DNA of 64,000 nt from assembly GCA_963674695.2 (NCBI GenBank), contig CAXXGI010000001.1, positions 192,001 to 256,000 of the forward strand, read 5' to 3'. Within the stretch, counting starts at the first letter, position 1. Each line of letters starts with the position of its first letter. The notes beneath the pieces were generated by a model. That model was not told the DNA's origin. It was given only the letters and a program-made list of their open reading frames with translations, and searched no databases. Below, piece by piece: positions 2,785 through 61,687 of the stretch. A program made the position numbers and the translations under genes. This DNA is from a bacterium. Lineage in GTDB: Bacteria > UBA10199 > 2-02-FULL-44-16 > JAAZCA01.

Positions 2785-2812
2785 TTATCGGCCGAGTAAA
2801 GGGAAGAGTTGC
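2785..2812 (-). promoter_or_regulatory. Sigma28-like promoter motif
   Basis: GCAAC-N15-GCCGATAA on the minus strand, upstream of the TA pair. Confidence 0.6.
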
Positions 2813-3016
2813 TTATTATTTACCTCAAGCTAATATTAACTTGAGGATAATTCTAAGGCGAGACGCTACAACCAACTGAACTCATTGAGTTTTTTGGTTC
2901 TAATGAACAACCTTCGCCTCGACCGCCACTTGGCTGCTTATGGGGATTTTGACATACAAAAAAATGGCTCGCGCCTCTTTTCTAAGCCCCACAACTATCT
3001 GATTATTATAGTATTT

Positions 3017-3037
3017 TTGAGCGGGTGATGGGAATCG
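3017..3037 (-). other. Duplicated 3' end of tRNA-Gly (att-like site)
   Basis: ttgagcgggtgatgggaatcg matches 3585-3605 (ttgagcgggtgaagggaatcg) at 20 of 21 positions. Confidence 0.85.
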
Positions 3038-3136
3038 CCGGCTCGCGCTCACACTCCGCCGACTCGCGGTACCCACTCATCGACACTTCAGCAGTATAAA
3101 GTTCGCCTATTCGGCGAACGACTTATTCGAAGGTCG

Positions 3137-3500
3137 CGGCACTTCATCTATCGGATGCCCACCTTCGGTGGACCCAAACCGCTGAAGGTCGGCCGGCTCG
3201 CGCACACACTCCCCGGCACTTCATCTATCGGATGCCCACCTTCGGTGGACCCAAACCGCTGAAGGTCGGCCGGCTCGCGCTCACACTCGCCGGCACTTCA
3301 TCTATCAGATGCCCACCTTCGGTGTGCCCAAACCGCTGAAGGTCGGCCGGCTCGCGCACACACTCCCCGGCACTTCATCTATCGGATGCCCACCTTTGGT
3401 GGGCCCAAACCGCTGAAGGTCGGCCGGCTCGCGCACACACTCCCCGGCACTTCATCTATCGGATGCCCACCTTTGGTGGGCCCAAACCGCTGAAGGTCGG
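3137..3500. repeat. Tandem array of 77-bp hairpin-forming units (about 4.7 copies)
   Basis: Units start at 3137, 3214, 3291, 3368 and 3445 (cggcacttcatctatcggatgcccaccttcggtgg...gaaggtcggccggctcgcgcacacactccc). Confidence 0.95.
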
Positions 3501-3543: not shown

Positions 3544-3588
3544 TCAATGAGAAAGGGGTCCCAAAAAACGGGACCCCTTTCTCATTGA
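3544..3588. terminator. 19-bp-stem hairpin directly downstream of the tRNA
   Basis: tcaatgagaaaggggtccc-aaaaaac-gggacccctttctcattga. Confidence 0.7.
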
Positions 3589-3658
3589 GCGGGTGAAGGG
3601 AATCGAACCCTCATAACGAGCTTGGGAAGCTCGTGTTCTACCACTGAACTACACCCGC
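3588..3658 (-). tRNA. tRNA-Gly (anticodon CCC), CCA not encoded
   Basis: Reverse complement GCGGGTGTAGTTCAGTGGTAGAACACGAGCTTCCCAAGCTCGTTATGAGGGTTCGATTCCCTTCACCCGCT folds as a cloverleaf with discriminator U. Confidence 0.97.
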
Positions 3659-3662
3659 TGAT

Positions 3663-7410: not shown

Positions 7411-10400
7411 CTACATCGCCGCGACATGGTTTGCAGCGTCGGCATCCGCAGGCAGACACTGCGCCACGGCGATCGATTCGAACATCGCGCTCTCGCGCTT
7501 CATGAGCTGGGCATACTCCACCTCAACCGCGGCCATCTTTGCTTCGCGCTCGACCTCGATCTGGGCGAGCATCTCGTCGCGCTTGGCGAGGATCTTCGCC
7601 TTCTTATCCTCTTTTCGTGCCGTATAGGTCGAACAGGTCTGCATGGTCGGCATGTCCATCCCATGCATCTTCGCCATGTAGAGACCACGACTTGATGCGG
7701 AGGCACTGCACCCGAGTTCATCCTCGACCATATCCTCATCGAGTTTCTCGAGCTTCATCTTGGCCAGCGCCTCGGCTCCTTCGCGCTTGGCCGCATAGAA
7801 GACGTCGAAGGTCTTGAGCGCTCGGATGGTATTGATGCCGGCCTGCTGAAATTCCTCTTTCGTCACGCTCTCGTCGCCCGCCTCCATGCGTTCGAGAATC
7901 GAGTGATAACCGGTGCGGGCGTCACTCCAAAAACCGTCCACCGCGCTCTCGTTGCGCCAACCGTCATAGGCCACGAGCCCATCGGCGAGATACCCGATCA
8001 CGACGAACTCGGCGGTCATCACGGCGATGGAACCGGCGAGCGTGAGCCCTCCCGTCTCACCGGCAGCGGCGAGTCCGCCGACCTTGACGAGCTTCCCCGC
8101 CTTGAGGCCGCGCTGGACCCACTTGAGCTTGTTCGCCATGTTGAGCGCCCCGTGCACGATGCCCACGCCCGCGGCCACGGTCGTGACGTTCGTCGCGATC
8201 GCCTTGGCATTGAACTCGCCCCTGTGCACCATGTCGGCAGCGGTGAGCGCCAGGACCAGCGGCACGGATCGTTTGATGAGCCGTCCAAATCCCGGCGTCG
8301 GTGCAAGAGCGGGGAAACGCGCCATGAATGGTTCGATCATGCGCTGTCCAACGCTTCCGCCGACGGCCAGCGGGCCGTATTCCTTCACAAACCCAAGCGC
8401 GCTGCGCTCGCTGAGCTTCTCCCAGTCGCCGCGAATGATATCCGCACCGATGCCGGCAGCGGCAAAGGGCAACGCCCCCATGCCGATGGCCTTGCCCTCG
8501 CTCACGAAGGCACGCTTCATCCCCGTCATACTCATCGCGCTCAGGTCGAACGGCGCGACATCGAGCACCATCGTCCCATCGGCCTGCACACGCGGAATAT
8601 AGCGGCGTCCATCGCGCGGGTCCTCGATCACATCGCCCGGCTCGAGCATGCGGCATTCCATGCCTTCGCCAGGCTTTCCGCCGGGAGCTTCCCGAGCTGT
8701 GCCTTTTTTCTCAGTTCGCTCCGGCACAGCATCCTCCGGCATCGACTGCTTGGCATCGCCATTGCGAAAGACGACATCCGGATCGACGGAAATGCCGAAC
8801 TCTTTTGCGGTCGCCTCAGCGACATCCACCTTGGTCACCACGATTTCTTTTGCTCCCTCAGGCGATCGATCGATGGCATACTCGATTGCGCTCAGGAGCG
8901 TCTGCTTGACGGCATCGACGCGTGGCCATCCATCCTGATGATGCCAGTATTCCAAACCGACATGCAGCACCGCCTTGACCGCATCAGGCGCCAACTTTAC
9001 GCCGTAATGAGAAGCATACCAGGGGGCGATACCCTTTCTGAGGATCACATCGATAATGGAGACCTGCATCTGTGACACGTTGATCACCGGAGAACGGCGT
9101 TTGAGATCCTTGATCATCGAGAGCAGGACCTTCATATTTTCCGTCGTCGTCGATGCACTCCATCGGCACCACTTTTCCGTCATGACAGGCTTGAGCATGG
9201 CGCCAAGCGATTCGGCGTCGCCGCCGGAATGGCTCCCCACCTTGATGAAGTCAGCGATCTCAGGAAAATAGATTGCCTCGCCCGCCCTCATCGCATCGAT
9301 GAGGACCTGATAGCGCGCCGTCATCTCACCGACGGTCATCTTTCCGCCCTTGGCCGACTGCAGCTTGTTCGGATCAACCTTTCTGAGAATGAGACCCTTA
9401 AGGCCTTTCGGAACACGTGGGTCATTGAGGGCAATCAGCTGTGCCGCGCGCTCGACAACCTTATCCTTACCCACGCCGGAATCACCGACGAGAACAGGGT
9501 TGGCATATTCCGGTCGGGCCAGGCCCTTGAGATATTCGATCGCCTCGGCATCACGCCCATGGATCTCGTTGAGCGCTCGATCTTCCTTGAGCAAACGGCG
9601 TTGTTCCTCGATCATGTCGACCGTGAAGTCCTTGAGACTGGCTTGTTCACCGATCCCCATCAACTTTTCCTGGTGCTTCATCTGACGATCGCCGAGCATC
9701 TTGAAGATAATTCCCATACCAAGCATACTGCCAGCCGACAGAACCGCCTGGAAGATTCTATTCCAAAACATCTGGTCATCTTGTCTCTCTTCCCTCCTGT
9801 CCGACAACGTCTTGCCATACATCACATCTTCGAAATTATCCTGGAGGTATGCACGGAGCTCTTTTCGGCGCGTGCCACCATCCTTATCCCATATGCCGAA
9901 ACCATTGGACGTATCATCCAATGCGGCGATCATGCGGGTGAGGTGATCCTCGTTTCGACTCAACCAGTAGATGCCACGAGGCTTCTCATCGTTGGGGCAC
10001 ATATTTTCTGCAATACAACAGAACGTCTTGTCCGAGAGCCGCATCTCCTCATTCTTGCCCAGCGCAATCGCCTCCGCCTCACTCATGGCGAAGCCCTCGT
10101 CCATCTCCACCACGCCTTTATGGTTGATGGCATTGAAGACGTTTCGGGCCAGCGCACCCGCACTGCCCAACTCGGACTCGCAGGCGAACCAGAGATAGCC
10201 GCCGCTGACACGGTTCGAACGCGTGAGGATGTGGAGACCGTGCTCCGCAAGGATATTCTCCTTGAGCAGAAACGTCGTCTCGGGATATTCGGCCCCCGGT
10301 GTGGCGGGATTGTTCTGATAGATCAGGTCATGCCATCCCGCAGGGACCTCCGCCTTGGGATCGATGAACTGAAATTGCGGCTCCGGCCCCATCGGGTTGG

Positions 10401-10554
10401 GATTGCCGGGGCTCAGCACCATCCCGCCACCCTTGGCGATGATGCGCTTACACCCATGAAAACCCTCTTTGTTATTTTGAGGGTTATAGACGGAATAATC
10501 CTGGGGTTCACAGACCTTCTGTCCCCGGCCGCACTTGTTGGTGTCGCCTGCCAT
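7411..10554 (-). CDS. Orphan membrane protein with a single degenerate ClpA/B-type AAA+ domain
   Basis: IHGRDAE...NPVLVGDSGVGK...MLKP...STT..RR aligns by eye with Clp NBD1. Hydrophobic segments lie on both sides. RBS GAGGAGA precedes the ATG at 10554. Confidence 0.75.
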   Translation of the reverse strand: MAGDTNKCGRGQKVCEPQDYSVYNPQNNKEGFHGCKRIIAKGGGMVLSPGNPNPMGPEPQFQFIDPKAEVPAGWHDLIYQNNPATPGAEYPETTFLLKENILAEHGLHILTRSNRVSGGYLWFACESELGSAGALARNVFNAINHKGVVEMDEGFAMSEAEAIALGKNEEMRLSDKTFCCIAENMCPNDEKPRGIYWLSRNEDHLTRMIAALDDTSNGFGIWDKDGGTRRKELRAYLQDNFEDVMYGKTLSDRREERQDDQMFWNRIFQAVLSAGSMLGMGIIFKMLGDRQMKHQEKLMGIGEQASLKDFTVDMIEEQRRLLKEDRALNEIHGRDAEAIEYLKGLARPEYANPVLVGDSGVGKDKVVERAAQLIALNDPRVPKGLKGLILRKVDPNKLQSAKGGKMTVGEMTARYQVLIDAMRAGEAIYFPEIADFIKVGSHSGGDAESLGAMLKPVMTEKWCRWSASTTTENMKVLLSMIKDLKRRSPVINVSQMQVSIIDVILRKGIAPWYASHYGVKLAPDAVKAVLHVGLEYWHHQDGWPRVDAVKQTLLSAIEYAIDRSPEGAKEIVVTKVDVAEATAKEFGISVDPDVVFRNGDAKQSMPEDAVPERTEKKGTAREAPGGKPGEGMECRMLEPGDVIEDPRDGRRYIPRVQADGTMVLDVAPFDLSAMSMTGMKRAFVSEGKAIGMGALPFAAAGIGADIIRGDWEKLSERSALGFVKEYGPLAVGGSVGQRMIEPFMARFPALAPTPGFGRLIKRSVPLVLALTAADMVHRGEFNAKAIATNVTTVAAGVGIVHGALNMANKLKWVQRGLKAGKLVKVGGLAAAGETGGLTLAGSIAVMTAEFVVIGYLADGLVAYDGWRNESAVDGFWSDARTGYHSILERMEAGDESVTKEEFQQAGINTIRALKTFDVFYAAKREGAEALAKMKLEKLDEDMVEDELGCSASASSRGLYMAKMHGMDMPTMQTCSTYTARKEDKKAKILAKRDEMLAQIEVEREAKMAAVEVEYAQLMKRESAMFESIAVAQCLPADADAANHVAAM

Positions 10555-10596: not shown

Positions 10597-10623
10597 TTAT
10601 CGGCGGATTTTCGGAGAAGTTGC
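10597..10623 (-). promoter_or_regulatory. Sigma28-like promoter motif
   Basis: GCAAC-N14-GCCGATAA. Confidence 0.7.
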
Positions 10624-16777: not shown

Positions 16778-17614
16778 TCACTCCCCACCCTGAACCGAAA
16801 CACGACTCAAGTTAAAGAGCTGCATGTTGAACTGATAGACCGCGTCGGCCGCATTCTCCTCGGCCAGAAAGCCGGAGAGCGTCGAGCGAAATTCGCGGAT
16901 CATCGTGCGCGCGGCATCGAGTTTCTCGCGCGAGACGGCGAAGGTGACCGAACCGACCTCACGCTGCGCATAGGGCAGATCTTCGATCGTCGCGGCGGCG
17001 CGCTCGATCATCTCGCGCTGATAGTTGCTCATGGCCAGCGACATCACCGCATCGCCGCTGGAGATATGCCGTGTGCGCTGCACGAGTTTGCCCTTCGCAT
17101 CGCGATCGATGAGCCCCAGCTCCAGCAATAGGTCGATCGCCTCACGCGCCTCGCGCGGCGTGATGTTCGGAACGATGTGCCGTGCGATCCATTCCGGATC
17201 CTCCTGAAAATCGGCGAGCAAAATCATCTCGCGGATAACCGGCACATACCAGCGCGAGTAGTATTCGAACTGCCCGTGTTCCAGGCGATGGACCTCGGCG
17301 TATTTTCGATTCGCCGCGATGCGCTCGTAGTAGATGTTGCGTTCGGCGTCGGTCTTGGCCTGATCGAAGAGGACGAGGTTTTCGAAGAAGAGCGACTCGT
17401 CCCGCTTGAGCTTGAGCGCGCGCGCCACCTTCTGCACGCCCGCGATCGAGAGGTTGCGTTTGCCCTGCATGACCAGGTGCACGAAGTTCGACGAGGCAAA
17501 CCCGGCCTGCCGCGCGAACGCGCGATGCGAAAACCCACGCCGTTCACGCTTGAGCTCCACAAACGCGTCGCGCAAAAACTGCCGATAATCCCGATAGGCA
17601 AAGACGTTCACCAT
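16778..17614 (-). CDS. TIGR02147-family protein (HTH + DUF4423-like)
   Basis: VFAYRDYRQFL, FSHRAFARQAGF, GKRNLS, WYVPVIRE and VYQFNMQLF. RBS GGAGG. Confidence 0.85.
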   Translation of the reverse strand: MVNVFAYRDYRQFLRDAFVELKRERRGFSHRAFARQAGFASSNFVHLVMQGKRNLSIAGVQKVARALKLKRDESLFFENLVLFDQAKTDAERNIYYERIAANRKYAEVHRLEHGQFEYYSRWYVPVIREMILLADFQEDPEWIARHIVPNITPREAREAIDLLLELGLIDRDAKGKLVQRTRHISSGDAVMSLAMSNYQREMIERAAATIEDLPYAQREVGSVTFAVSREKLDAARTMIREFRSTLSGFLAEENAADAVYQFNMQLFNLSRVSVQGGE

Positions 17615-17858
17615 TGCCGCCTCCACTTCTATTATCGTCTGGTCGCACCCAGAAGTTGACCAATACTTTCTTTTTCTGTGTTCTGTTCGTATTCGCGTCA
17701 ATCATCACGAGTATAGCACCTCATTGCCATCATTGGCACCACAATATTGCTCGTATCGTTATTTCTACTTTATTATCGAATAGTTATACGGAATCCCCCG
17801 CAAGACGGAGCACATCCATTCCGTGTTCTTCAAAGAACACACTTCTTCCATTTACTAC

Positions 17859-17886
17859 GCAACATGGAACACCCATCTGCCGATAA
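17859..17886 (+). promoter_or_regulatory. Sigma28-like promoter motif
   Basis: GCAAC-N15-GCCGATAA. Confidence 0.65.
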
Positions 17887-26940: not shown

Positions 26941-29346
26941 TTACCACGGTTGGAAGGATTCGAGTTGGACCTTGTCGAGGTCGATGGCGATGAGATTGAA
27001 GCCGGCGCCGACGTAGAGGGTGCCGCCTTGGAGGGCCATGGCGGTGGGGGCGGCCGGGAGGGTGGCGTATCCCTGGAACTCCTCGCCGCCGTCGGCGCTC
27101 ATGTCGATGAAGAGGACGTGACCGATCTCGCCGCCGGCGCGCGTCCACATGGGGAGTTCGTCCTCGCCCTCCGGGCGGATGGCGATGTAGGCCTTCGATC
27201 CATCGACCGCGATGTCGACGATGCGCATATCCTGAACCGGAAGCGAAATCGAACGCTCGATGGGGGTGACCTCGTCCTCCAGATCGACCGTGAACAGCGC
27301 AGCGTTCGGCTGTTCGACGCCGAGATAGACGCGCCGTCCGGTCTCATCGAAGACGATCTCCGACATCGGGGCGATACGAACCTCGCCGAGCGGGATGATG
27401 CGCTTGCGCTGGATCTCGAACGGCTCCGGATCGAAAAGCGAGATGCTGGCCTCGTAATCGTCGTCTGGATTCACCTGTCCCGCATTGAGCGCGACGAGGA
27501 TCTCCTGATCGCCCTCGCCCACGTCGAGCATCGTGGTACCGAGCGCGGAGAGATTGATGCCGCCGGTAAAACCAAGATGTTCCAAATCGCCGTAGGGTTC
27601 TCCCTCGTCGCCGAAGCAGAGGATCGTGCCCTGCACGAAACGTCCCGGCGCATCGCCCACATCGCGCGTCCTCATGACAAAACGGCTGCGATCCAGATCG
27701 ATGGTCAGCGAAGGGAAATCACCAAACGCCTGAGCCAACGGATTGATCCCCTGCTCCTTCAGCGAAGGCAGGATGCCCGTGAATCGAAACTCCGCCTCTT
27801 CATCGCCCCCTTCGGCATCATCGATCTCAGGGGAGAGTGCCTCGACAAAACCGACTTCGATATGACGCACACCGGAAGCGTCCACCCCGCCGCGACGTAC
27901 GATGGCAAAGGGCTCTCCCTCTTCCGGCAGCATCATCTCGTCATCCTCGATATCGCCACCCGCATCCGGCATGGGCGCAACAGCGCTGCGCATATATTCC
28001 ACGCCCGCATGATACCAATTGGCACTGGAGATGAAGATACGATCGCGATCGGGCGCGGTGGAATGATGATAGGCGATTCCGCCCGGATAGGTGGGCGTGT
28101 AGAGCGGCCCGATGCCGGGGATGACGATCTCATCGATCTGCGTATGAGAGACGAGAGCCTCCTCGGCTTCAAGGCCCTCTTCCATCACGAGGTAATCGAT
28201 CGGCGTGCCCACATCCATCGGGGCCCCGTCGGCGACGATATAACCATGCGAGAGCGCGGCGCGCGCAACGGGTGAAACCCCCTCGGGGAGCTCGGCGCTC
28301 ACCTGGCAATCGACATCCTCGATGCCATCGACGGCACAGGCATAGGTCGCCATCGGGGCATCGCCATAGAGGGCGAGCCCGCCATCGACGGCATCGATGT
28401 CGACGATCGGCGCATCGAAGACCGCAGCGGTGTAGTTGATCCCCGGCGGCGGCGGATCCTCCTCCTCCAATTCCGCATCCGGCTCGGGGTCGACATCCTC
28501 GTCGATATCGCCATCAACGTCATGCTCGGGTTCGAGTTCCGGCTCGAGTTCGGGTTCGAGTTCGGGTTCGAGTTCGGGCTCGAGCTCCGGCTCGAGTTCG
28601 GGTTCGAGTTCGGGCTCGAGCTCGGGCTCGAGTTCGGGCTCGAGTTCGGGTTCGAGTTCGGGCTCGGCATCGACCTCTTCATCACCGTCGACGGGATGCT
28701 CCTCTTCAATATCAGGATCCTCATCAACATCAGCATCATCATCGATGTCAGGCTCTTCGTCGACCTCCTCGTCGCCGTCGACCGGTTCGTCCTCTTCGAT
28801 CTCCGGTTCTTCGTCGACCTCCTCGTCGCCATCGATCGGCTTCTCCTCGATATCCCGATCCCCATCGATCGGCTCGAGCTCCCCATCGACATCCCCATCC
28901 TCGGAGATATCGACGTCCTCGGGCCGATCCCCATCAACGGAAGGATCGCCGTCCGCTTCATACTCATCGCCATCGAAAGGCGTCGTATGCGGCGAGGAAC
29001 AACCGAAGCCGACACTCGCCCCGTGGCCGATGGAGACATGCAGTCGATCGAGCGCATGTTCGAGCTTTGCAGCGGCACTGGAGAGACCGGCGGCCTCACC
29101 GTAATACAACAGGGGACTTCCGAAGAGGCTGACCGCCCCCCCGCCAACGCCACCACGCAGGAGATACTGCAGCAGATGATACTGGTCCTGGGCAAGCCCC
29201 AACGTGCCGGGCTTGACGAGGGGATCGTTGATGTCGGTGGGATCGAGGCGCCCGTCGCCGGGAGTGGCGTCGAGCCGACGCAGCGTCTCGTTATAGCGCT
29301 GCATCAGAAGTCGTGCCCTGGTTTCGAGGTCGTTCACGGCGCTCAT
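26941..29346 (-). CDS. Orphan protein with acidic repeat stalk and probable C-terminal beta-propeller
   Basis: DGDEE repeats and (EPEL)n, then beta-rich blades (IVDIAVDGSKAYIA, LALQGG-like MALQGGTLYVG). RBS GGGAG. Confidence 0.7.
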   Translation of the reverse strand: MSAVNDLETRARLLMQRYNETLRRLDATPGDGRLDPTDINDPLVKPGTLGLAQDQYHLLQYLLRGGVGGGAVSLFGSPLLYYGEAAGLSSAAAKLEHALDRLHVSIGHGASVGFGCSSPHTTPFDGDEYEADGDPSVDGDRPEDVDISEDGDVDGELEPIDGDRDIEEKPIDGDEEVDEEPEIEEDEPVDGDEEVDEEPDIDDDADVDEDPDIEEEHPVDGDEEVDAEPELEPELEPELEPELEPELEPELEPELEPELEPELEPELEPELEPEHDVDGDIDEDVDPEPDAELEEEDPPPPGINYTAAVFDAPIVDIDAVDGGLALYGDAPMATYACAVDGIEDVDCQVSAELPEGVSPVARAALSHGYIVADGAPMDVGTPIDYLVMEEGLEAEEALVSHTQIDEIVIPGIGPLYTPTYPGGIAYHHSTAPDRDRIFISSANWYHAGVEYMRSAVAPMPDAGGDIEDDEMMLPEEGEPFAIVRRGGVDASGVRHIEVGFVEALSPEIDDAEGGDEEAEFRFTGILPSLKEQGINPLAQAFGDFPSLTIDLDRSRFVMRTRDVGDAPGRFVQGTILCFGDEGEPYGDLEHLGFTGGINLSALGTTMLDVGEGDQEILVALNAGQVNPDDDYEASISLFDPEPFEIQRKRIIPLGEVRIAPMSEIVFDETGRRVYLGVEQPNAALFTVDLEDEVTPIERSISLPVQDMRIVDIAVDGSKAYIAIRPEGEDELPMWTRAGGEIGHVLFIDMSADGGEEFQGYATLPAAPTAMALQGGTLYVGAGFNLIAIDLDKVQLESFQPW
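28525..28665 (-). repeat. Coding 12-bp tandem repeat encoding (EPEL)x11
   Basis: Repeated gagttcgggytc units. Confidence 0.95.
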
Positions 29347-29413: not shown

Positions 29414-29440
29414 TTATCGCATAACTCCCGAAAAAGTTGC
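29414..29440 (-). promoter_or_regulatory. Sigma28-like promoter motif
   Basis: GCAAC-N14-TGCGATAA. Confidence 0.65.
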
Positions 29441-42614: not shown

Positions 42615-42747
42615 ACCCCCTCTTCGGCCGAACGACGCATTTGTTGTGTCTTTTTTGAATCGATATGAGCATTCTTTTCAGTACACGATAGAAATGACGT
42701 CCATCGACAAAAAACACGCATTTTGCCCTACTCTGAAGAGTTTTTAC

Positions 42748-42774
42748 GCAACTTTTCCTTGCATGTACCGAAGA
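42748..42774 (+). promoter_or_regulatory. Sigma28-like promoter motif
   Basis: GCAAC-N14-ACCGAAGA. Confidence 0.55.
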
Positions 42775-50573: not shown

Positions 50574-50600
50574 GAAACTTTTCGGGGTATGCGCCGATAT
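50574..50600 (+). promoter_or_regulatory. Sigma28-like promoter motif
   Basis: GAAAC-N14-GCCGATAT. Confidence 0.62.
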
Positions 50601-51815: not shown

Positions 51816-51842
51816 GCAACTTTCCTTGCATTTCTGCGAAAA
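51816..51842 (+). promoter_or_regulatory. Sigma28-like promoter motif
   Basis: GCAAC-N14-TGCGAAAA, preceded by agttctaaacagcac. Confidence 0.58.
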
Positions 51843-51881: not shown

Positions 51882-54800
51882 ATGAGCATCAACAGCATTT
51901 CGATCCAAATCGCGCAGACGCTCGCACAGTCGGTCACGACGGCGATCGATGAGGGCGACGGTTCCTCCGTATCCGATCGCGCCGATCAGTTCCTGCCGGA
52001 CGCGGCAACTCGCGAGAGTACGTTCGCGTTCACACCGAAACAGCTCGGCGATGTGATCGACGCGATGACCGAGACTTTCCTGCGCAACACGAGGGCCTCG
52101 TCGCTGGCGCGCTATGACATCGCCACTACCTTCCGCAACGCCTTTCATATCCTCACAAACGAACAATTTCCGAAAATGCGCGAACGCATCGCCAAGGGCG
52201 AAACACCGAGCCCAAAGCAGATTGCCCAGCTTATCACCGCGAGCCTCAAGAAGGGATATGCCGAGGCCCACCGCACCACACAGAAGAGCGCCGCCCTTCA
52301 TATTGCTCCCTACGCCGAGATCCTCGCCCCGTTCGTCGAGCGCTATGCTGCGCGCCTCGATCTCGTCGGGAGCAAAGATCCCGCAAGCACCCCAAAGCGA
52401 ACCCAGAAGAAATCGCCGAGCCAAGCGGCACAAACCATTTCACCGACGGCAGCGGCGAAGATCATTGTGCGCGCACGTACACGCATCGATGCCATGCAAG
52501 CATGGATCCTTACGCTCGACGGAGATGCGCAGCAACGCGCGGAAGAGAACCTCAATCGCGCCACCTCGCTCATCACAGAGACCGGGCTCACCTCACTCGG
52601 AGCCGATGAAATCGAGATCGCCGATGCATTGGAACGCCTGGGGGCAGTGCAGATCCTCGCAGCGACGGAGGCCGTCCTCGAGATCGAAGAGGCCTTCATC
52701 GCCGTGCGCGCGCTCGTTCATAAGGCCGCCATCGACGACAGCACCCTGCAGACCGATCGCTTTCTCGATCGCGCGATCGTCGCCCAGGGACGGGCACGCA
52801 CCCTGCGGGATGACCTGAACGACTGGATCGCCGCACGGCCGGAATGCGCGGAACACGACGCAGCACTGCGAACCGCGCTCGATCACTATCTACGCTTTTG
52901 GCTGAACGCCCATCGTGAGGATACGAGCCAACGCCTCACGCTCATTCCGGAGATGCGCGAAGACGCCGTCGCCCTCACGCTGTCCGCGGCGGGCGATGAA
53001 CGGCATGCGTTCAACGCGATCTTTCGCCAACTGCTCGCGCATCTGGTCATCAGCGCTCAGCAGCGCAGTCTGCAATCCATTGCAGACGGCATCGAGCGAA
53101 AGCCGGAGACCAAACAGGAAGGCACGTCACACCCGCAACAGGAATCCGACGTGCGCACGCGTCTGGCCCACCGACGCAAACAGCTGCAGGGCGAACGAGG
53201 CAGCGACATCCTCACGGCCTCTCAAACGGCGTCCACGCGAAAAACAACACCCACGAGTGCTACAACACCGCCGAGCCGCAGACGTCCGTTCATCCCGGGC
53301 GGAACACAGGGACTCGGTTCACTCATCGACGAATATGAACGCCTCATCGGACCGATCGATCCGGATCAATTCGAGCGAGAGACCGGCTCGGATCTCAAAC
53401 GCGTTCGGCAGTATGGGGAGATCCGACGCGATCGCCTCGCCTCTGCCGCGCGCTGGAATATCCTGCGTCGGCTCATGCAGGGAACCCCATGGGAAACCCT
53501 CGTGGCCGATGCCGAGGAGAACGAAACACTCGATCGACTCATCCTGCGCTATCCGCCGGCAAACGCCTCAACCGCATGGCCTCAACAGGTTTGGCAGGCC
53601 AGGCAGCAGGATCGCCTCGTCGAACTGGCTCGCTCCTATACCCCGAGCGCCTTCCTCCTCGGCATGAACCTGCGCGCGATGCTCGAGCGCAATCCACCGA
53701 AGGATGCCGACGAAAAGAAGTGGAAGAAGACGGTCACCGAATACGCAGAGGCGGGGCTCGTCACCGATTTTGAACTCTCGGAATACGATCGCCCCCCGTA
53801 CCTGGCGAAGCAGGATTGGGAGCTCGTCATCGCCCATCACATCGCAAACGACGATCTCGAACGCATCTCGACCGAGCCGCGGCACGCGAATGCCAACGCG
53901 GAGCTGTTGGCGATCTTCGATGCCCTCTGGACCCGGGCGCGCCGCCACGGCTTTGAACTCGACCCGATCGATCTTCTCGCGGGCGCCTCCCCGATCATCC
54001 GCAGTATGCGCGATCGGGCAACGGCCAACGGCACCATCGACGTCTTCGTTCCTCGCTTTATGGCCGAACTCAAATATGAAAATTTCGGCACGCCGACGCT
54101 GGCGCGCTTGCTCGGCGGTCTGGACCAGATCCCCGAAGCAACGCGACTCAACCAGGAGCGCGGCGGCGTCATCCGCATGAGCTGGATGACCCTCGATCGC
54201 ATCAACACGCCGCTGGCGGTCGCCGACATCAGCGGCCTGGACGATCAGGAACGCCGCCACAAAGAGTTCGACGGCGGCTTTATGCGCTGGGTGGATCTCG
54301 CGCTCAACATCACGCCGCAGATTCAGGATGCCTCCGGACGCGCGCAGGGTCGCGCCGCACTCCCTGCGGCAAGTCGATATCGTTTCCAACTCACGCCCAA
54401 CCCCGCCGAATACGTCGTCGACGAATCCGAGGGTGCCGCTCACGATATCTCGAGTGTTCTGACTAACGCGGGCCGCGGATATTACGGCCGGCTCCTGCAC
54501 CGGGTGGACGACTATCTGAACGCGATCATTTCGCTCCCGTTTGAAGTGACGATCACCAGCATTCCCCAACAGGGCCGCGAAGAGACGCAGACCATACCCG
54601 TGGAAACGCTGCGCGAAGAGGTCAGTGCGCTCATGAGCGAAGAGGAAGAAAACCGCGTGCTGCTCCAGGTCGGTTCGATGGATGCGGAACTCCAGAGCGA
54701 TCTGGAATCCTTCTATGCGGCGCTCGGCCGAAGACTGCGTGAAATGCTCTATCACATGCCGGCACGCGGCACGGCTGTGATCGGCGACCATGCGATCCCC

Positions 54801-57800
54801 TTTCAGGCCGTCTCCGCACTCGTACGCACGCGGATCGCTGCCCAGGCGGGCAACAGAACAACGCTCATCGTCGACAACACCACAGCGGCATCGCTCTCGA
54901 ACGACCGTCGAAATGCCTTGGCAACAATTCGCCTGCTCATCCCTCTTGCACACCGCGAGGGAAGACTCGCGCCCGGCGCGGAATCGAGCATGGCCCTGCT
55001 TCACGATGGTATCGCCCCGCTCTGGACAGACGACATCCATCGCCTGGATCAGGCCGTGCAGGATTATCAGCGATACGCCAACGCCAGACCGCTCGACGAT
55101 GCCGGCACGGACCTCGCTCAGATCCTGCGCACCGGAGGAGCCGGCGCACACGTACGCGTTCTTCCGATCGGCCCGATGCTGCCGGGGGGCAGCGCCGCCT
55201 GGCGCGAACAGTTTCCGTCCTTCGCCCGCAAGCGCGATGCCGATCACAGCATGATCGATGCCGGGATCGAGGCGATGACCGAATACTTCGCCACCAGCAA
55301 GGGATTCACGGGACACTTCTGGAAGCGCGACCTCGACCGCATCACGTCGAAGTGGGCAGACTACGCCGACGTCGACGCGCAAACCCTTCGCGCCCACATC
55401 GTCGCCTTCCTGCCGACCATCGGCGTCGCAAACGGCAAACCGAAGGATTGGATCGTTTCGATCGATCCGAGCGCACCGGAAGGAATCGCGCGCACGGATC
55501 TGGCCAACCGCGCCCTGCACATCTATCTCGAACTCTTCGCCCAAACGCCTCACATGACCACGAAGGTTCCGATCGAGGAGACGCTCCTCACGGATGTCAT
55601 CAATCGCACCTTCGCGGAATATGGCGCCGAGCTCGCCCATCGACCGAAACAACGCCTCGTGTTGCGCGAGACGCGCCTGCTGCTCGAGCGCCACAATGCG
55701 CAATCGAGCACCCCCACGATGCGAGCACAGGTCACGCTCCCCAGAACGGGACTCGGGCAGAAGACGGATGCGGAGGCGATGGAGCGGTGGCAACGGCTCA
55801 CCACGCACGCACGCTTCGGCATCGCTGCATTCGCGCGCCAGCACTTTCACGCACCGTATGCCACCGACGCCGCCATCGAGGAACTCGCGCTGCGCTTTGC
55901 CAATGAACGGCTCTTCTCGGCAGGAGCCATCGCGACGGAAACGATCGCATTGGAACTCGTCGGCGAAAATTTCCTCCCCTTCGAAGCAATCGCGCATCGC
56001 ATGGCGCTGGGAATGGCCCAGATTCTCGACGCCTATCTCACGCACGTCACCGAACACACCGATGCCATACACGCGCGCGCGATCGAGGCGATCGAGGCAA
56101 CCGCGAATGACGACGCCTTCTTTGCAGCGAACGAAGCCGAGTTTCGCGAGACTCTCGTTGCACGGCACGACCTGCCCGCATTCACAACGCTCATCGAAAC
56201 CGAAGCGAATGGAAGGCTCGCGCACGCGCTCGCCGGGAGCGAAGCGCCCGAGATCTCGATCGAGACATACACACAGGAACGCTACGCCGAGACCGTTGCC
56301 CCGCGCTATGAACACGCTCGCGCCGCGCGCGAGACGAGCGCGACCGAGATGGAGCAGCACCTTGCGGCCATCGGAGAGCTGCATGCCCAGGTGATGGCGC
56401 TCTCGGCTCGATACATGACGGCGATCGACGCCTCCGACATGAACCGCAATATCATCGAGCGCTGGAGCAAAACCCTCGAGGCGGGAGCGACCGCACTCGC
56501 AACGGCTCGCGAGAAGAAACCGGCGCTCATGTCATGGCTCGATGCGATCCAGGCCATCGCGCTCGACCTGGCCGACGCCCCGCACCCGACGCTCGAACGC
56601 CCGGGCGTGATGGACCGGGCGGTCGCCGCCGAAACAAGCGCTGAGGAAATCGCGACAACGCTCGACGCGACCGATGCGCGCGTGAAGGAAAATCGCCAGG
56701 CTCTCGATGATCGTCTGAAGGACATTGAAGCGAGGGAAGAGGCGCAGGCGATCGCGCAGACGGCACATACCCTCACCGGAGCGTTGACCACACAGAAAGA
56801 CATGCTGCAGCAAGCCGTGCAGCAGGCAACTGCCGACATCGATGCGATTCAGACGGATGATATCGATGCCATCGAACGGATCATCGCGTCTCTCAAAAAA
56901 GAGCTCTCCGACGAAAAAATCGGCCACGATCGCTTCGATGATGGCAGGAGCGCACAGGTGGTGATCGGCAACACGTCCGAAAAACTCCACGGACGCCTTC
57001 GGGAAATCGAAGCGCACCTTGAAAAGGCATGCAAAGGGGAAAAGGGGAACCTGACATCTACGCTCAAACAGGCCCGGACAATCCTCCAGAGAATCGACGG
57101 CGAAGATCCAGCCCTTGCGGCGCAGATCGCAGCGATCGAGGAAACGCTTGGGAAAACAGAGACGCTCATCGCTCGGATCACTGCCCTTCATGTGCAGATC
57201 GACGCCTTCTCCGAAACGGTCGCGCAGACGATCACCGCAGCAGAACCCAAACTCACCGTCGCCGATGCGATCGACTTGAGCCCCTTCCGCACGTCACCCA
57301 GGGCAGCCGCATCACCGTCCGATCTCGTCCTGAACGATGAAGCCATCGCGGGAAACCCGCACTTCAAGGCCAAACAGCGTCTCGCGCCGATTCTTGATGG
57401 AGGCGTGTTCTCGTATGCGGGCAAAGCACATCTACTCTCAGCTGATACGATAAAGCGGATCACAATCTGGATGACGAATGGTCGAACAGAAACGCTCACC
57501 TTTACCGACCTCTTCGACACGAACATCAAACTGGCGGCAGGAACATACGGCCTGCGCCTCGACGCGCGCAGCGATCTCATCGAGCACAATCCCGATCACG
57601 CCTATGCGCGTATCATCGCGACGCTGACGCTGGTCATCGAGGAAAAGGGGGGCGCCTCTGAAATCCTCTGGCGACTGGCGAGTCAATCACTCGGACAGAC
57701 AACGAACACCAAGGCACAGGCGCTGATGCGCAACCTCATGGCCACGCTGGCCGAACAGAAGACACCCGCCAACGCCGCATCCGCGCGCGCAGCCCTGAAC

Positions 57801-60800
57801 GACTGGGCCGTGCGTTATCGCGAGAATCTCTCCCAGGCGCTGGACACTGCCACCATCTCGAAGATTTTTCGAACTCCAGAAACGAAGAGCAAAGCCCCGA
57901 CGGAAACACCGCTCGGAATCGAGAGCGTCTACAGCTCGAACCTGCACGCAGCGATGGCACGACATTTTCAAGCACAGATCGAGATGCCACACCTGGAAAC
58001 GGTCCTGATTCGGAGCGCGAACGCGTTCACCGGCCTCCTCATTGATCCGAAAACGATGCAGCGCAGGCCGGGCCACAGCAATCCCCTCCAGATGAACGAG
58101 ACCACCCGCGTGTACGATTCGGGTCGGGGGAAATGGATACGGTTCAGAGAGATAATGAGCACAGTGGGAACCATCGACCTCAAACGAAATGTCTTCCTCG
58201 TGGACAACCCGCTGACCTCTCCCCGCAATACACGCGTGATGCGTCTGTATACGCGCATCTTTTCCAACCCCGAGTTCATGGATCTGGGATGGCTGATCCT
58301 GCAAGCGCTCACCAACAACATGCCCGCCCCGCTCACCCTGAGCATCATGGGGCTGCTCGAACCGATCACTCAGGCCTCCGAAGAGATGCCGCCGCCGAAG
58401 GAGCTGCACGACGTCCAGCGAACGGCGGTCGAACTCTACCGGATCTGGACGGAACCCGTCGAAGCGATGCCCGAGGTCGAGCGCTTCGATGTTGAGAATG
58501 CGAGCGCGACCATCGATGTCTTCCTCGACAAGGTCTCGATCAATTCCGAACTCGTCTCGCATAAGCTCACAACCGAGATACCGCGAAACCCGAAGCTGCG
58601 CCGTGAAATCGCCATGCTCCTCATGCTCTCGGCGGTCACATCCGACGACTATGTCGACGCACGAACGATCGATCAGGAGAAATCGAAGCAGATCTACGAG
58701 TTCATCATGGAGCGCTTCGCCACCATCGCCAGAGCGATGCTCTTTGGGAACGCCTCAAAACGCGACCATACGTTCAACGCCGTGCTCAAGGACGGAAAGA
58801 CCGAAGCGCTCTATCGAGAGCTCCGCCCCCTGATCCTGGCCGACCGCACCAGAAACATCATTCGTTTCAAGGAGGCGAAACAGGTCGACAACGCCATGAT
58901 GCAGCGACGAGTCCTCTTTGCCGAGCCGAGCCCGGCGATGATCGCTCGATTTCCGGAGCTGGGCCGCGTTCCGATCGACGCCATCTTGAAGGCCCTCGAC
59001 CTGGATATCGAAACCGGTTTCGGCGAATTCGGCTATGTCCTGCCGGAGCTGGCCCCCTTGCTGACAATCCTGGCGATCGCGGAGCCATGTCTCCCACAAT
59101 CGTTGCGCCAGGAAACGGAGAAGCTCTTTGAACAGATCACCAACGAGGCTATCGACCTCTCACAGAACAGGAAACGCGACCGGAGCGCCATCCTCGATGG
59201 CATCGCGGAACAGACCATCGAACTCTACGCCGCCCACCGCGAGGCGATCCACGATGCGCTGCGCGAAACCGACCCGCGGACGGGGCGCACCTTCGCCTAC
59301 GGTCTCTTCGGCACCGACGCCTTCGCGCGCGAAGAGGAGCCGACCTGGGAAGAGATGCGAGCCTATCCGCTTGTGCGACTCCTCATGCCGGAGAGCGCAC
59401 AGGTCGCGCCTTCATCGCAGAAGATGATGCACTCGGACATGCTGCAGGGAAAGCTCACACTCCCCGGAGTGCCGTCTCCAACGGCAGACGCCATCCGCGA
59501 CTATGCGCTCGCCTTTCGCGAACACGTCGATCCGGGGTTCGTCTTTATCCTGCTCGGCCTCGAAAATGCCGAGCAGCTCCCCCGGCCGCTGGCCGATTAT
59601 TTCACGCAGCGGGAATGGTCGCGACCGGCCGTGCCCGAGCGCGGGGCGCCGGACTATCTCGCACGCAAGACCGACACGATGGCAGAAATTTTTATCACCT
59701 TTCAGCGAACCACCTTCGAGATCGCCGACATCCTGCGTGAGCCCGGCGTCCTGGCCGAGATGCGCGAAAGTCTCTCGGAAAACAACGGCCACCCTTCGAT
59801 CGCACTCGTCGGTACCGGCATGGAAGAGCCCTGGCTCCCCCTTCTCGTCCGACCGAAGCAGGTGGTCGATCGCCGGCTCGTCGAGATCATCCCGGAGCTC
59901 GGAGCATTCCAAACCCTTCCGGACGGGTATGATCGGCAGGACCCCATCACCGAGGCCGAGCCCCTGCTGCTGCTCTTCGACATCGCTCGCACGCACTTCT
60001 CGAAGCGGATGGAGCATGATTTCAAAGCGATCGCCAAGTGGATACGACAACATCTAGACGATGCAGCTGAACTCAATACGCCCAGGGCCCTCAAGCGAAA
60101 CGAATCATTCATGGCGCATCTCATCCCCTTCGTGCAACGGCATCGGGATGAGATCCGGGGCATGCTCTACACGCCGCTCAATAGCTTCCCGCGCGCGACG
60201 TTCAAACCCTATCTCGACGAGGGATCGTTCTCGCTCGACGATCATCTGCTCGAACTGATCACCGGCGATCATTTTCCACTCGACCCGCAGCTGCGCAACG
60301 CCCTGCCGATGCGCGCCGACGATCTGACCGAACACGACATCAACACCGCGCGCGCGATCCTGGGATCACACGCCTGGCTCGGGGATGCGATCGGCGATGA
60401 CAACCGCATCGCGCTGCGCGGCCAGATCGCCTGGCGTCTGGAAAACGCGATCGCGTCAGCAGAAAGCAAACCCCTTGGCGCGACGCTCATCACGCAGCTC
60501 GCCGACATTCCGGATGAATTCTATCCGGCCATGATGCTGCCCTGGTCGCAGGCGCTCCCCGAAGTTCATCACGATATGTTTGCCCATACCCTTCAGTCGA
60601 GCGGTGCCCTCGACGCCGAGCACGGCATCGTCGACCCGGATCGTCTCCTCTACGAACACGCCTGGATCCTCGTCGACGACCACGCGCACTTCTTTCCCCT
60701 CGTCAACCGCGCGCGATTCGACGAAAGAGCCACTCCCCTGCCGCGTCTCATACCGACGCAGGAACACCTATCACTCCCCGATCCGGCAGACGCCACCGTC

Positions 60801-61511
60801 GCCGATATCGACGCCTTCTTCAATGGGCTCCTCCAACGGGGAGAGCGCTCCGACCCGATCGGGCGAGAATACGCCATCGAGAGTGCCGTCAACAATTTTC
60901 AGGGCCAGATGAAAGGGACCTTTTTTTCATTCGAACCACCGTGGCTCAAGGGCACGCGCAAGAACAATTTTCTGGAGACCCTCCATCCGGCGGGAAGAAA
61001 GATCCTCTTTCTCGAAGCCATGTTCTGTATGCGCCCGGGGGACATGAACAAGTGGGGATATACCCTCGTATCCGAATTTCTGGAACGATTGACCAAGGAA
61101 CGGATCAAAGAGACCGATATCGACGGCATCGTGCGCATGCTCTACACGGTCTTTTGCGAACAGCGCCGATACGAGCTCCAGGAGATCATCGCAAACCCCG
61201 CGCGCCTCGAAGAGATCCTGGATGATGTCCAATCACGGCCGCTCAAAAATCGAAAGGGCGGCGGATCGAACACGCCGCCGACGAGCAGCGCGCCGCCCAC
61301 GAGCGGCACGCCGCCGACGACACCATCGGGCCCGGGCGGATCGCAGGCCAGCGCTCTGACCACCGACACCGCGCTCGCTTCGGGCCTGGATCTTATCATT
61401 GCGGATACGAACGCCCTCATGCCGGTGGAAACCGAGATGATGGATATGAGCGCCGACACCTATCTCTACCCCATGCTCACCGCACCGATGACAGCGGCGA
61501 TGATACTCTAG
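51882..61511 (+). CDS. Giant orphan protein E, 3209 aa, helical with a central coiled coil (shared C-terminal tail)
   Basis: 9.6-kb ORF with RBS ggag and an A/E/L-rich heptad region near 56.3-57.25 kb. Confidence 0.88.
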   Translation: MSINSISIQIAQTLAQSVTTAIDEGDGSSVSDRADQFLPDAATRESTFAFTPKQLGDVIDAMTETFLRNTRASSLARYDIATTFRNAFHILTNEQFPKMRERIAKGETPSPKQIAQLITASLKKGYAEAHRTTQKSAALHIAPYAEILAPFVERYAARLDLVGSKDPASTPKRTQKKSPSQAAQTISPTAAAKIIVRARTRIDAMQAWILTLDGDAQQRAEENLNRATSLITETGLTSLGADEIEIADALERLGAVQILAATEAVLEIEEAFIAVRALVHKAAIDDSTLQTDRFLDRAIVAQGRARTLRDDLNDWIAARPECAEHDAALRTALDHYLRFWLNAHREDTSQRLTLIPEMREDAVALTLSAAGDERHAFNAIFRQLLAHLVISAQQRSLQSIADGIERKPETKQEGTSHPQQESDVRTRLAHRRKQLQGERGSDILTASQTASTRKTTPTSATTPPSRRRPFIPGGTQGLGSLIDEYERLIGPIDPDQFERETGSDLKRVRQYGEIRRDRLASAARWNILRRLMQGTPWETLVADAEENETLDRLILRYPPANASTAWPQQVWQARQQDRLVELARSYTPSAFLLGMNLRAMLERNPPKDADEKKWKKTVTEYAEAGLVTDFELSEYDRPPYLAKQDWELVIAHHIANDDLERISTEPRHANANAELLAIFDALWTRARRHGFELDPIDLLAGASPIIRSMRDRATANGTIDVFVPRFMAELKYENFGTPTLARLLGGLDQIPEATRLNQERGGVIRMSWMTLDRINTPLAVADISGLDDQERRHKEFDGGFMRWVDLALNITPQIQDASGRAQGRAALPAASRYRFQLTPNPAEYVVDESEGAAHDISSVLTNAGRGYYGRLLHRVDDYLNAIISLPFEVTITSIPQQGREETQTIPVETLREEVSALMSEEEENRVLLQVGSMDAELQSDLESFYAALGRRLREMLYHMPARGTAVIGDHAIPFQAVSALVRTRIAAQAGNRTTLIVDNTTAASLSNDRRNALATIRLLIPLAHREGRLAPGAESSMALLHDGIAPLWTDDIHRLDQAVQDYQRYANARPLDDAGTDLAQILRTGGAGAHVRVLPIGPMLPGGSAAWREQFPSFARKRDADHSMIDAGIEAMTEYFATSKGFTGHFWKRDLDRITSKWADYADVDAQTLRAHIVAFLPTIGVANGKPKDWIVSIDPSAPEGIARTDLANRALHIYLELFAQTPHMTTKVPIEETLLTDVINRTFAEYGAELAHRPKQRLVLRETRLLLERHNAQSSTPTMRAQVTLPRTGLGQKTDAEAMERWQRLTTHARFGIAAFARQHFHAPYATDAAIEELALRFANERLFSAGAIATETIALELVGENFLPFEAIAHRMALGMAQILDAYLTHVTEHTDAIHARAIEAIEATANDDAFFAANEAEFRETLVARHDLPAFTTLIETEANGRLAHALAGSEAPEISIETYTQERYAETVAPRYEHARAARETSATEMEQHLAAIGELHAQVMALSARYMTAIDASDMNRNIIERWSKTLEAGATALATAREKKPALMSWLDAIQAIALDLADAPHPTLERPGVMDRAVAAETSAEEIATTLDATDARVKENRQALDDRLKDIEAREEAQAIAQTAHTLTGALTTQKDMLQQAVQQATADIDAIQTDDIDAIERIIASLKKELSDEKIGHDRFDDGRSAQVVIGNTSEKLHGRLREIEAHLEKACKGEKGNLTSTLKQARTILQRIDGEDPALAAQIAAIEETLGKTETLIARITALHVQIDAFSETVAQTITAAEPKLTVADAIDLSPFRTSPRAAASPSDLVLNDEAIAGNPHFKAKQRLAPILDGGVFSYAGKAHLLSADTIKRITIWMTNGRTETLTFTDLFDTNIKLAAGTYGLRLDARSDLIEHNPDHAYARIIATLTLVIEEKGGASEILWRLASQSLGQTTNTKAQALMRNLMATLAEQKTPANAASARAALNDWAVRYRENLSQALDTATISKIFRTPETKSKAPTETPLGIESVYSSNLHAAMARHFQAQIEMPHLETVLIRSANAFTGLLIDPKTMQRRPGHSNPLQMNETTRVYDSGRGKWIRFREIMSTVGTIDLKRNVFLVDNPLTSPRNTRVMRLYTRIFSNPEFMDLGWLILQALTNNMPAPLTLSIMGLLEPITQASEEMPPPKELHDVQRTAVELYRIWTEPVEAMPEVERFDVENASATIDVFLDKVSINSELVSHKLTTEIPRNPKLRREIAMLLMLSAVTSDDYVDARTIDQEKSKQIYEFIMERFATIARAMLFGNASKRDHTFNAVLKDGKTEALYRELRPLILADRTRNIIRFKEAKQVDNAMMQRRVLFAEPSPAMIARFPELGRVPIDAILKALDLDIETGFGEFGYVLPELAPLLTILAIAEPCLPQSLRQETEKLFEQITNEAIDLSQNRKRDRSAILDGIAEQTIELYAAHREAIHDALRETDPRTGRTFAYGLFGTDAFAREEEPTWEEMRAYPLVRLLMPESAQVAPSSQKMMHSDMLQGKLTLPGVPSPTADAIRDYALAFREHVDPGFVFILLGLENAEQLPRPLADYFTQREWSRPAVPERGAPDYLARKTDTMAEIFITFQRTTFEIADILREPGVLAEMRESLSENNGHPSIALVGTGMEEPWLPLLVRPKQVVDRRLVEIIPELGAFQTLPDGYDRQDPITEAEPLLLLFDIARTHFSKRMEHDFKAIAKWIRQHLDDAAELNTPRALKRNESFMAHLIPFVQRHRDEIRGMLYTPLNSFPRATFKPYLDEGSFSLDDHLLELITGDHFPLDPQLRNALPMRADDLTEHDINTARAILGSHAWLGDAIGDDNRIALRGQIAWRLENAIASAESKPLGATLITQLADIPDEFYPAMMLPWSQALPEVHHDMFAHTLQSSGALDAEHGIVDPDRLLYEHAWILVDDHAHFFPLVNRARFDERATPLPRLIPTQEHLSLPDPADATVADIDAFFNGLLQRGERSDPIGREYAIESAVNNFQGQMKGTFFSFEPPWLKGTRKNNFLETLHPAGRKILFLEAMFCMRPGDMNKWGYTLVSEFLERLTKERIKETDIDGIVRMLYTVFCEQRRYELQEIIANPARLEEILDDVQSRPLKNRKGGGSNTPPTSSAPPTSGTPPTTPSGPGGSQASALTTDTALASGLDLIIADTNALMPVETEMMDMSADTYLYPMLTAPMTAAMIL

Positions 61512-61603
61512 TCCTCATTGAAGGTGTCATTCCCGCGAACGCGGGAATCTCGCTTATCAACGCTCAATCGAGATCCCCGTTTTCACGGGGATGACAAAAA
61601 CCA
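61511..61603. repeat. REP doublet / truncated MITE family 1 remnant
   Basis: gtcctcatt-gaaggtgtcattcccgc...ctcgcttat....tcaatcgag...gatgacaaaaaccaa matches the MITE-1 interior. Confidence 0.75.
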
Positions 61604-61660
61604 AACTCCACCTGTATTTAACCCTGCGCTTTCCAAACTCACGTCAGTTCTAATCAGCAC

Positions 61661-61687
61661 GCAACATTCCTGGTATTTCCGCGATAC
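61661..61687 (+). promoter_or_regulatory. Sigma28-like promoter motif
   Basis: GCAAC-N14-CGCGATAC, preceded by agttctaatcagcac. Confidence 0.6.

Follow-up and report, generated by a model that had tools for sequence, protein, structure and literature searches.

What reads the two-box motif that recurs ahead of orphan genes in this stretch of DNA, and how far does its control extend? The window, the whole analysed stretch of 64,000 nucleotides (nt; G000:C1:192001-256000, where G000 is the studied genome of 3.03 Mb, rated 100% complete), had been described in an initial annotation as carrying nine intergenic copies of a sigma28-like promoter, by which a divergent FliA/WhiG-like or extracytoplasmic function (ECF) sigma factor would co-express an orphan cluster, a pseudo-AAA protein and a protein with EPEL repeats. 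The repeated motif is, as judged from the sequence, a real promoter signal, predicted ahead of about 200 mostly unknown genes. Its probable reader is P0001, a sigma factor derived from sigma28/FliA and encoded inside a gene cluster for type III secretion (T3SS), and to the explanation as a whole, with the promoter as described below, a probability of about 0.85 is assigned.

For the genome-wide assessment, 2,387 genes were called in G000 by a home-made hexamer model, and a two-box matrix was seeded on upstream sites; its upstream enrichment is therefore partly built in, and the weight was placed on the held-out window sites, the model-free counts and the shifted gaps. The matrix consensus reads acGCAACttt(t), a gap of 16 (17, 18) nt, and gcCGATAa. 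At a threshold of at least 18 bits, 217 sites were found in the genome, with 183 upstream of a gene on the same strand, 20 in other non-coding DNA and 14 touching coding DNA. The shift of the matrix gaps by -5, -4, +4, +5 or +8 reduced the upstream sites from 183 to 0-5. The model-free pattern GCAAC-N16-CGA occurs in 107 copies in the same-strand upstream non-coding DNA, which makes up 5% of strand positions, as compared with 24 copies for gap 17, 26 for gap 18 and 1-12 copies for each of the control gaps 10-15 and 19-23. The median distance from the motif to the start codon is 45 nt, with 160 of 201 sites within 100 nt and 12 sites beyond 500 nt, the latter of which, such as C1:805956, C1:840825, C2:858630 and C3:470659, may belong to missed genes or to small RNAs and are candidates for sigma-driven small RNA promoters.

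The -10 box is of the GCCGATAA type, with C, G, A, T and A at frequencies of 0.99, 1.0, 0.99, 0.87 and 0.95 and the preceding GC at 0.56/0.62, and it agrees with the sigma28 -10 consensus (PMC12784957), as the initial annotation had stated. The 16-nt register of sigma28 from the -35 pentamer to CGA is kept at 146 of 203 strong non-coding sites (gap 17 in 26 and gap 18 in 30); the register being that of canonical sigma28 promoters, it is the usual -35 element TAAAG that has become GCAAC. The classic sigma28 promoter TAAA-N15-GCCGA was rejected as a candidate, with one upstream site genome-wide. Moreover, the sites form two sub-classes, which argue against one uniform programme: gap-16 sites (146/203) have an upstream A-tract and TTTT, whereas gap-17/18 sites (56/203) have a fuller GCCGATAATA and no A-tract. 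The long-gap sites head the T3SS operons and three DUF4423 regulator genes, and signal-peptide genes are commoner behind them (14/44 vs 15/117, p=0.01). A palindromic box at offset -34, a pattern picked after inspection, accompanies 12 of about 224 promoters, including the one at window position 17859.

In the window, all nine annotated sites were recovered, each on its strand, at 20.8-32.2 bits with a matrix trained solely outside the window, and the exact GCCGATAA is present in three of them (2785, 10597 and 17859), as had been reported. By chance, 0.025 sites of at least 18 bits are expected, as estimated for the 7,997 non-coding bases of the window by 200 Markov simulations. The loose pattern by which the sites had been listed captured them but was not specific, since 12 of its 21 window matches lie off the list. 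One further window site of at least 18 bits, 62579(-) at 18.9 bits, is in coding DNA, and two weaker intergenic sites (17632-17659(-) and 42621-42647(-)) add to the nine. The features, in coordinates counted from the first letter of the stretch, are as follows.

1817..2689, minus strand: a toxin-like DUF4258 gene (2396-2689) with an antitoxin-like MqsA/HTH gene (1817-2380), by Pfam
2785..2812, minus strand: promoter motif, gap 17, 23.9 bits; precedes the DUF4258/MqsA-like toxin-antitoxin pair
7411..10554, minus strand: 1047-amino-acid orphan with a degenerate P-loop/AAA-like stretch (the pseudo-AAA protein of the initial annotation); AAA_5 alone, E=0.11
10597..10623, minus strand: promoter motif, gap 16, 32.2 bits, 43 nt ahead of its gene
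17632..17659, minus strand: extra promoter motif, gap 17, 17.1 bits; precedes a DUF4423/HTH regulator gene (16778-17614)
17823..17840, no strand: palindromic box GTGTTC-N6-GAACAC, candidate activator site upstream of the 17859 promoter
17859..17886, plus strand: promoter motif, gap 17, 23.4 bits; precedes a TSP3 lipoprotein gene (17924-19108) and a DUF3160 gene (19153-21489)
26941..29346, minus strand: 801-amino-acid acidic orphan with 11 EPEL repeats
29414..29440, minus strand: promoter motif, gap 16, 30.4 bits
35723..35750, plus strand: promoter motif, gap 17, 20.8 bits; 8 nt ahead of an 85-amino-acid signal-peptide orphan (35758-36015)
42621..42647, minus strand: extra weak motif, gap 16, 15.8 bits; precedes an S41 peptidase/PDZ gene (40812-42614)
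42748..42774, plus strand: promoter motif, gap 16, 25.1 bits; heads an orphan run (42813-44555, 44689-46296, 46307-50545)
50574..50600, plus strand: promoter motif, GAAAC variant, gap 16, 25.8 bits; precedes a 373-amino-acid orphan (50655-51776)
51816..51842, plus strand: promoter motif, gap 16, 25.7 bits; precedes a 3209-amino-acid orphan (51882-61511)
61661..61687, plus strand: promoter motif, gap 16, 22.4 bits; precedes a 3763-amino-acid orphan starting at 61724

The last orphan extends past the window and is a paralogue of the 3209-amino-acid protein. The view that the sites mark orphan or accessory genes stands for the AAA-like and EPEL genes, but the targets at 2785 and 17859 are not pure orphans, because the toxin-antitoxin pair and the TSP3 lipoprotein and DUF3160 genes follow them. 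An ESM Atlas search with the 580-amino-acid orphan returned no usable match, and among structured RNAs (Rfam, ARAGORN) the window showed tRNA-Gly at 3587-3658 alone. A near-perfect 24-nt palindrome at 2823-2846 (arms CCTCAAG/CTTGAGG) adjoins the toxin-antitoxin promoter, just 5' of its -35 box, and is likely an antitoxin operator. Upstream of the same pair, at 3225-3436 and 3587-3658, two near-identical short repeats resembling open reading frames lie by tRNA-Gly(CCC), a possible integration scar.

The gene of P0001 is located at G000:C3:8530-9399. The genome has seven matches to PF04542 (sigma70 region 2), namely RpoD and an RpoH-like factor (labels that are our own reading of the two sequences), three ECF-sized proteins, a 910-amino-acid protein whose C-terminus carries a sigma domain, and finally P0001, the sole FliA/WhiG-like one, whose best family is FliA/WhiG and whose best PDB matches include FliA; a divergent FliA/WhiG-like factor, and not an ECF one, is the likely reader of the two that had been proposed. 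Residues R80, D87 and R97 of P. aeruginosa sigma28, which are its -10/extended -10 residues (PMC12784957), align with R115, D122 and R132 of P0001, and in regions 2.4/3.0 R99, R115, D122, R125 and R132 are kept, while R94, R95 and R98 of E. coli FliA are not. In the -35 helix, S224 of P. aeruginosa is kept, Q228 has become R258, and the flanking E and R are K253 and W255; two E. coli residues in contact with the backbone of the -35 element, K208 and R220 (bioRxiv 10.1101/2020.01.02.893370), correspond to E243 and W255. The region 4.2 helix reads SKSWTSR in P0001 as against SESRVSQ in FliA, so that the ESRVSQ signature is missing, and the KSW..R helix is present in 60 of 60 homologues chosen by likeness to P0001, including all 30 Myxococcota ones examined. 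A retained -10 box together with an altered -35 box is, we infer, what these substitutions would predict, and P0001 very probably binds the motif sites.

Several other sigma-related genes were observed. The 910-amino-acid protein (C3:147960-150692) has complete sigma70 regions 2, 3 and 4 at its C-terminus, preceded by an uncharacterised part of 680 amino acids, and its gene sits under a 28.5-bit motif; a lone sigma70 region 4 is encoded at C3:358688-359542; and in the relatives G036 and G075 a second, shorter sigma paralogue with the helix SKSWASRLH was found (L197, L198).

The T3SS cluster around the sigma gene (C3:4045-24918) encodes SctJ, FliG-like, SctL, SctN, FliJ-like, FliM-like, FliN/SctQ-like and FliO-like proteins, SctRST and two SycD-like chaperones, and the motif sites C3:4378 and C3:7674 head two of its operons, one of which is the sigma's own. 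SctV and SctU are encoded away from the cluster, the former by the sole SctV/FlhA gene directly 3' of a secA-like gene (C1:140901-145830), and the latter at C3:761006-762082. Neither flagellin (PF00669) nor rod (PF00460) domains were matched in G000, and FlgM (PF04316) gave no match, although a diverged copy could escape detection; thus, the flagellin or late flagellar targets and the anti-sigma factor by which a sigma28 regulon is recognised were both missing from the matches. The three secretins of the genome sit in clusters resembling a type II secretion system, a pilus and Tad. With its SctJ/L/N/Q/R/S/T/U/V core, and with neither a secretin of its own nor a flagellar rod, the machine agrees with the Myxo system that Abby and Rocha describe as secretin-less (PMC3459982), the putative needle-less class being assigned by the core genes. 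Alongside this T3SS, as in M. xanthus, a Tad-like cluster (C2:682693-692453) with Flp pilins, a secretin and two TadB/C-type genes was observed. Near-identical 110-amino-acid open reading frames are repeated between the T3SS genes and elsewhere (C3:6717-7472, C3:18475-18810, C2:896623-897380), and a set of three small proteins that have hydrophobic and coiled-coil-like stretches, and that could be translocator- or filament-like, is encoded twice (C3:573661-577005), with a gap-18 promoter for each copy.

The motif and the sigma factor are conserved together in the own phylum. Matches to P0001 were obtained in 40 of 41 relatives and, across the phylum, in 80 of 81 genomes, and the exact motif occurs in 11-88 copies per genome in all 41 relatives, as compared with 0-7 copies with the gap two shorter. 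Of 30 own-phylum loci, each considered with up to 1.5 kb of flank, 18 carry a site of at least 14 bits at a distance of 727-1318 nt upstream of the sigma match, with gap 18 in 17 of these 18. The first distant homologue (L026) was discarded as a case of this arrangement, being outside a T3SS locus and having no matrix match, with 4 exact sites in its genome. Flagellin is present in two of the 41 relatives, which carry a second sigma factor with an ESRISQ helix. In a small, post hoc check, TCAAG-N16/17-CCGTT was located upstream of 2 of 5 flagellin-family matches, both in G033, and GCAAC at none. At the loci L194, L189, L195 and L196 (G033, G002), the FliA of the flagellated relatives seems to use a CCGTT/CCGTA -10 with a canonical-type -35, seemingly the mirror image of the T3SS sigma.

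The second phylum in which the pair occurs is Myxococcota, sampled through 81 genomes of the phylum of G083. A P0001 homologue (29-44% identical) is present in 45 of them, and the gap-16 vs gap-13 counts are 1222 vs 264 with the sigma and 279 vs 207 without it, the gap-13 control having replaced a reversed-pattern control that was too lenient for GC-rich coding DNA. The gap-16 excess is significant for 23 of the 45 sigma-bearing genomes as against 1 of the 36 others (G105); these co-occurrence statistics, computed over genomes and not over a tree, treat kin as independent and overstate independence. In 20 of the 45 sigma loci, compared over 13-20 kb each, the motif lies at what looks like the operon head, 0.7-3.8 kb upstream, in 15, there or after the sigma gene in 17, and in neither place in 3, the gap of the sigma-operon site being 16 or 17; a TPR neighbour gene is present in 18 of 20. 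In Myxococcus xanthus, MXAN_2437 (837 nt), annotated with sigma70 region 2/4, lies between a TPR gene and sctJ within mxan_2434-2464, in the order hypothetical-TPR-hypothetical-sigma70-hypothetical-SctJ (PMC9548883, Table S1B). Its orthology to P0001 is proposed from this annotation and synteny. The needle-less T3SS* of M. xanthus is needed for prey lysis (PMC12075869), and when prey is present the MXAN_2434 counts at 2 h are roughly doubled (721 and 579 vs 287 and 293, by our own reading of the column names of PMC9548883). SigF was rejected as the M. xanthus counterpart: according to the supplement of PMC9548883 it is MXAN_0785, and therefore a different gene.

The predicted regulon was characterised by a random sample of 40 first genes, none of them from the window, out of 161 behind strong sites, and by 40 controls out of 983 genes that have a long upstream gap but no motif; the first 900 amino acids were scanned with a Pfam cut-off of 1e-5. 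No Pfam match was obtained for 24/40 first genes as against 9/40 controls (p=0.001), in line with the expected enrichment before orphan genes. The absence of the motif before housekeeping genes holds as a tendency, but 16/40 first genes have Pfam domains, among them glucanotransferase, GGDEF, MFS, HTH, SLT/LysM lytic transglycosylases, serpin and peptidase C25, with further LRR, HEAT, TSP3 and PKD repeats. Many first genes belong to small paralogue families, including four proteins of 2,900-3,800 amino acids, two of which start in the window. The co-marked orphans of the initial annotation were recovered, while the scope of the regulon, which is genome-wide (about 200 sites), linked to a T3SS sigma and shared with a second phylum, had been missed. 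The N-termini of the non-Sec first genes contain more S/T/N/P/G and Cys and less L/K/E/R/I than those of the controls, Gly is at position 2 in 25/126 of them vs 34/701 controls, and at least two predicted membrane helices occur in 0/126 first genes without a signal peptide vs 5.7% of controls; these features are compatible with non-Sec export. Motif sites were also observed at C1:467243(-), 25.0 bits, and C1:878310(-), 16.8 bits, ahead of genes whose encoded N-termini seem to resemble SMC and FtsZ, a hint of a cell-cycle link.

The motif, its position, spacing and conservation, the co-occurrence with the sigma, the residue changes and the orphan enrichment are what was shown, and the mechanism is a proposal. 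According to it, regions 2.4 and 3.0 of P0001 would still read (GC)CGATAA, and the changed region 4.2 helix would read GCAAC instead of TAAAG with the register unchanged. The P0001 holoenzyme would then transcribe the motif sites and amplify itself, driving two T3SS-cluster operons, its own included, and about 200 other promoters. Most of the targets would be large, soluble, lineage-specific proteins, with surface lipoproteins, lytic enzymes and regulators as the rest, probably next to a few small RNAs. A flagellar sigma would thus have turned into the switch of a contact or attack programme, like the FliA of Bdellovibrio, here tied to a secretion machine. That many of the gap-16 orphans are T3SS substrates or attack proteins is suggested by their context, as a speculation a little short of even odds; that the programme is stage-specific is equally speculative, with the chances evenly balanced. 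A tentative and rather doubtful extension is that a late flagellar sigma outlived the conversion of the flagellum into a needle-less T3SS, took on another -35 specificity and now acts as master switch for a prey- or host-contact arsenal in two phyla.

The alternative that survives best, and which is quite possible, though somewhat less so than its opposite, keeps the same promoter and sigma but assigns them to a general developmental or surface programme, such as those of WhiG or Chlamydia sigma28, with the T3SS as one member and the orphans not as substrates. It accounts for the lipoproteins, GGDEF, glucanotransferase, MFS, HTH and DUF4423 regulators and the toxin-antitoxin pair among the members, for the lack of the motif at Tad and several T3SS genes, and for the many Myxococcota sigma-TPR cassettes without SctJ nearby. 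However, the sigma gene of the own phylum is part of the T3SS operon, whose promoter is conserved, and the lack of polytopic proteins among the 126 first genes, together with their K/R/L/E-poor N-termini, is as would be expected for exported soluble proteins. It is improbable that RpoD or RpoH, maybe with an activator, reads the sites, or that the two boxes form a repressor site: both sigmas are present in the genome and presumably conserved, but the motif has a strand polarity, is no palindrome and keeps a sharp gap of 16-18 and a short distance to the start codon, its Myxococcota excess follows the P0001 homologues, and the housekeeping genes HU (TTGACA..TACTCT) and gyrA (TTGACT..CACAAT) show the TTGAC-type boxes that had been ascribed to them. 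An ECF reader, to which the likeness of GCAACTT to AAC-containing ECF -35 boxes, the three ECF-sized genes and the position of one of them (C1:31327-31905) one gene downstream of the motif site C1:32852 could point, is the least credible, since the -10 is the sigma28 consensus and two of the three ECFs (those other than the one at C2, about 171 kb) have matches at E<=1e-12 in 7/41 and 10/41 genomes, mostly at 24-39% identity, as against 41/41 for the motif and 40/41 for P0001.

Several points weigh against P0001 as the reader and against a T3SS-directed regulon. P0001 scores under the TIGR02479 cut-off (132.4 vs 189.6 bits), and the RpoD and RpoH-like sigmas were set aside by their known consensus. 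The separate SctU and SctV genes, SctT and the head of the Tad cluster have no motif match within 900 nt. G105 has 54 sites yet no sigma match, 22 of the 45 sigma-bearing Myxococcota show no significant excess, kin there not being independent, and a SctJ gene no more than about 10 kb from the sigma is present in just 7 of 20 Myxococcota loci. The N-terminal bias is modest (6.6 vs 5.5 S/T/N/P/G per 20 residues) and depends on a home-made gene caller, and 29 of the 161 first genes cannot be T3SS substrates, because their N-termini are Sec-like (as in 282 of 983 controls). The MXAN_2437 counts are flat (225-308) across conditions (PMC9548883, Table S1B).

The motif supplies a sequence rule for the largest orphan block, 161 first genes or about a tenth of the predicted proteome, in an uncultured phylum, for which contact-dependent predation or parasitism is hinted. 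That the phylum to which the predatory myxobacteria belong has the factor and the signal as well may point to proteins used against prey, and it makes the control and exports of the M. xanthus T3SS* testable in a laboratory strain. If the proposal is true, GCAAC-N16-CGATA would be a 'hrp box' for bacterial predators, listing at least 100 candidate substrates here, the T3SS* effectors of M. xanthus, unknown so far, could be revealed through MXAN_2437, and promoters with long spacers would constitute a class of their own, tuned separately for the machine, its regulators and lipoproteins. Within a single genome, the sigma/promoter pairs ESRISQ/TCAAG and SKSWTSR/GCAAC would represent a natural example of orthogonality in sigma28 specificity.

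Among the known systems, HrpL is an alternative sigma of a T3SS locus whose hrp box marks dispersed effector genes; it is an ECF factor, unlike the group 3, FliA-derived sigma here, for whose targets secretion is only predicted. No description of the present promoter or regulon was found in the open-access literature, subscription journals being mostly outside its coverage. The sigma28/FliA class-3 promoters share the -10 GCCGATAA, the register from the -35 to CGA and the region 2.4/3.0 residues, as in P. aeruginosa fliC with TCTAAAG at -36..-30 and CGA at -13 (PMC12784957). They differ in the -35 (tcTAAAG vs acGCAAC here), in the helix (SESRVSQLH vs SKSWTSRLH here) and in the flagellin, rod and FlgM that were not found in G000, with about 200 targets here. 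The sigma28 of Chlamydia trachomatis, which is likewise kept in a non-flagellated bacterium, serves late genes through two bound promoters (hctB and tsp; PMC12282069), as against about 200 predicted here. The T3SS* of M. xanthus (mxan_2434-2464) is alike in its secretin-less core, FliO homologue and gene order (PMC12075869, PMC10849154, PMC3459982, PMC12248157), as well as in the accompanying Tad cluster, and in the accessible parts of this literature no promoter or regulon is assigned to MXAN_2437. The motif is a real feature, a variant sigma28 promoter with a FliA-like global regulon that departs from the class in its -35, helix, flagellar targets and FlgM. The closest model is Bdellovibrio bacteriovorus, where a FliA-type sigma is also a global regulator, with TTAAG-N16-CCGATA in 92 of 140 attack-phase promoters, many of them of non-flagellar or uncharacterised genes (Karunker et al. 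2013, PMC3627812); there the canonical -35 and the flagellum are retained, whereas here the -35 is changed, the flagellum is absent and the sigma resides in a T3SS operon.

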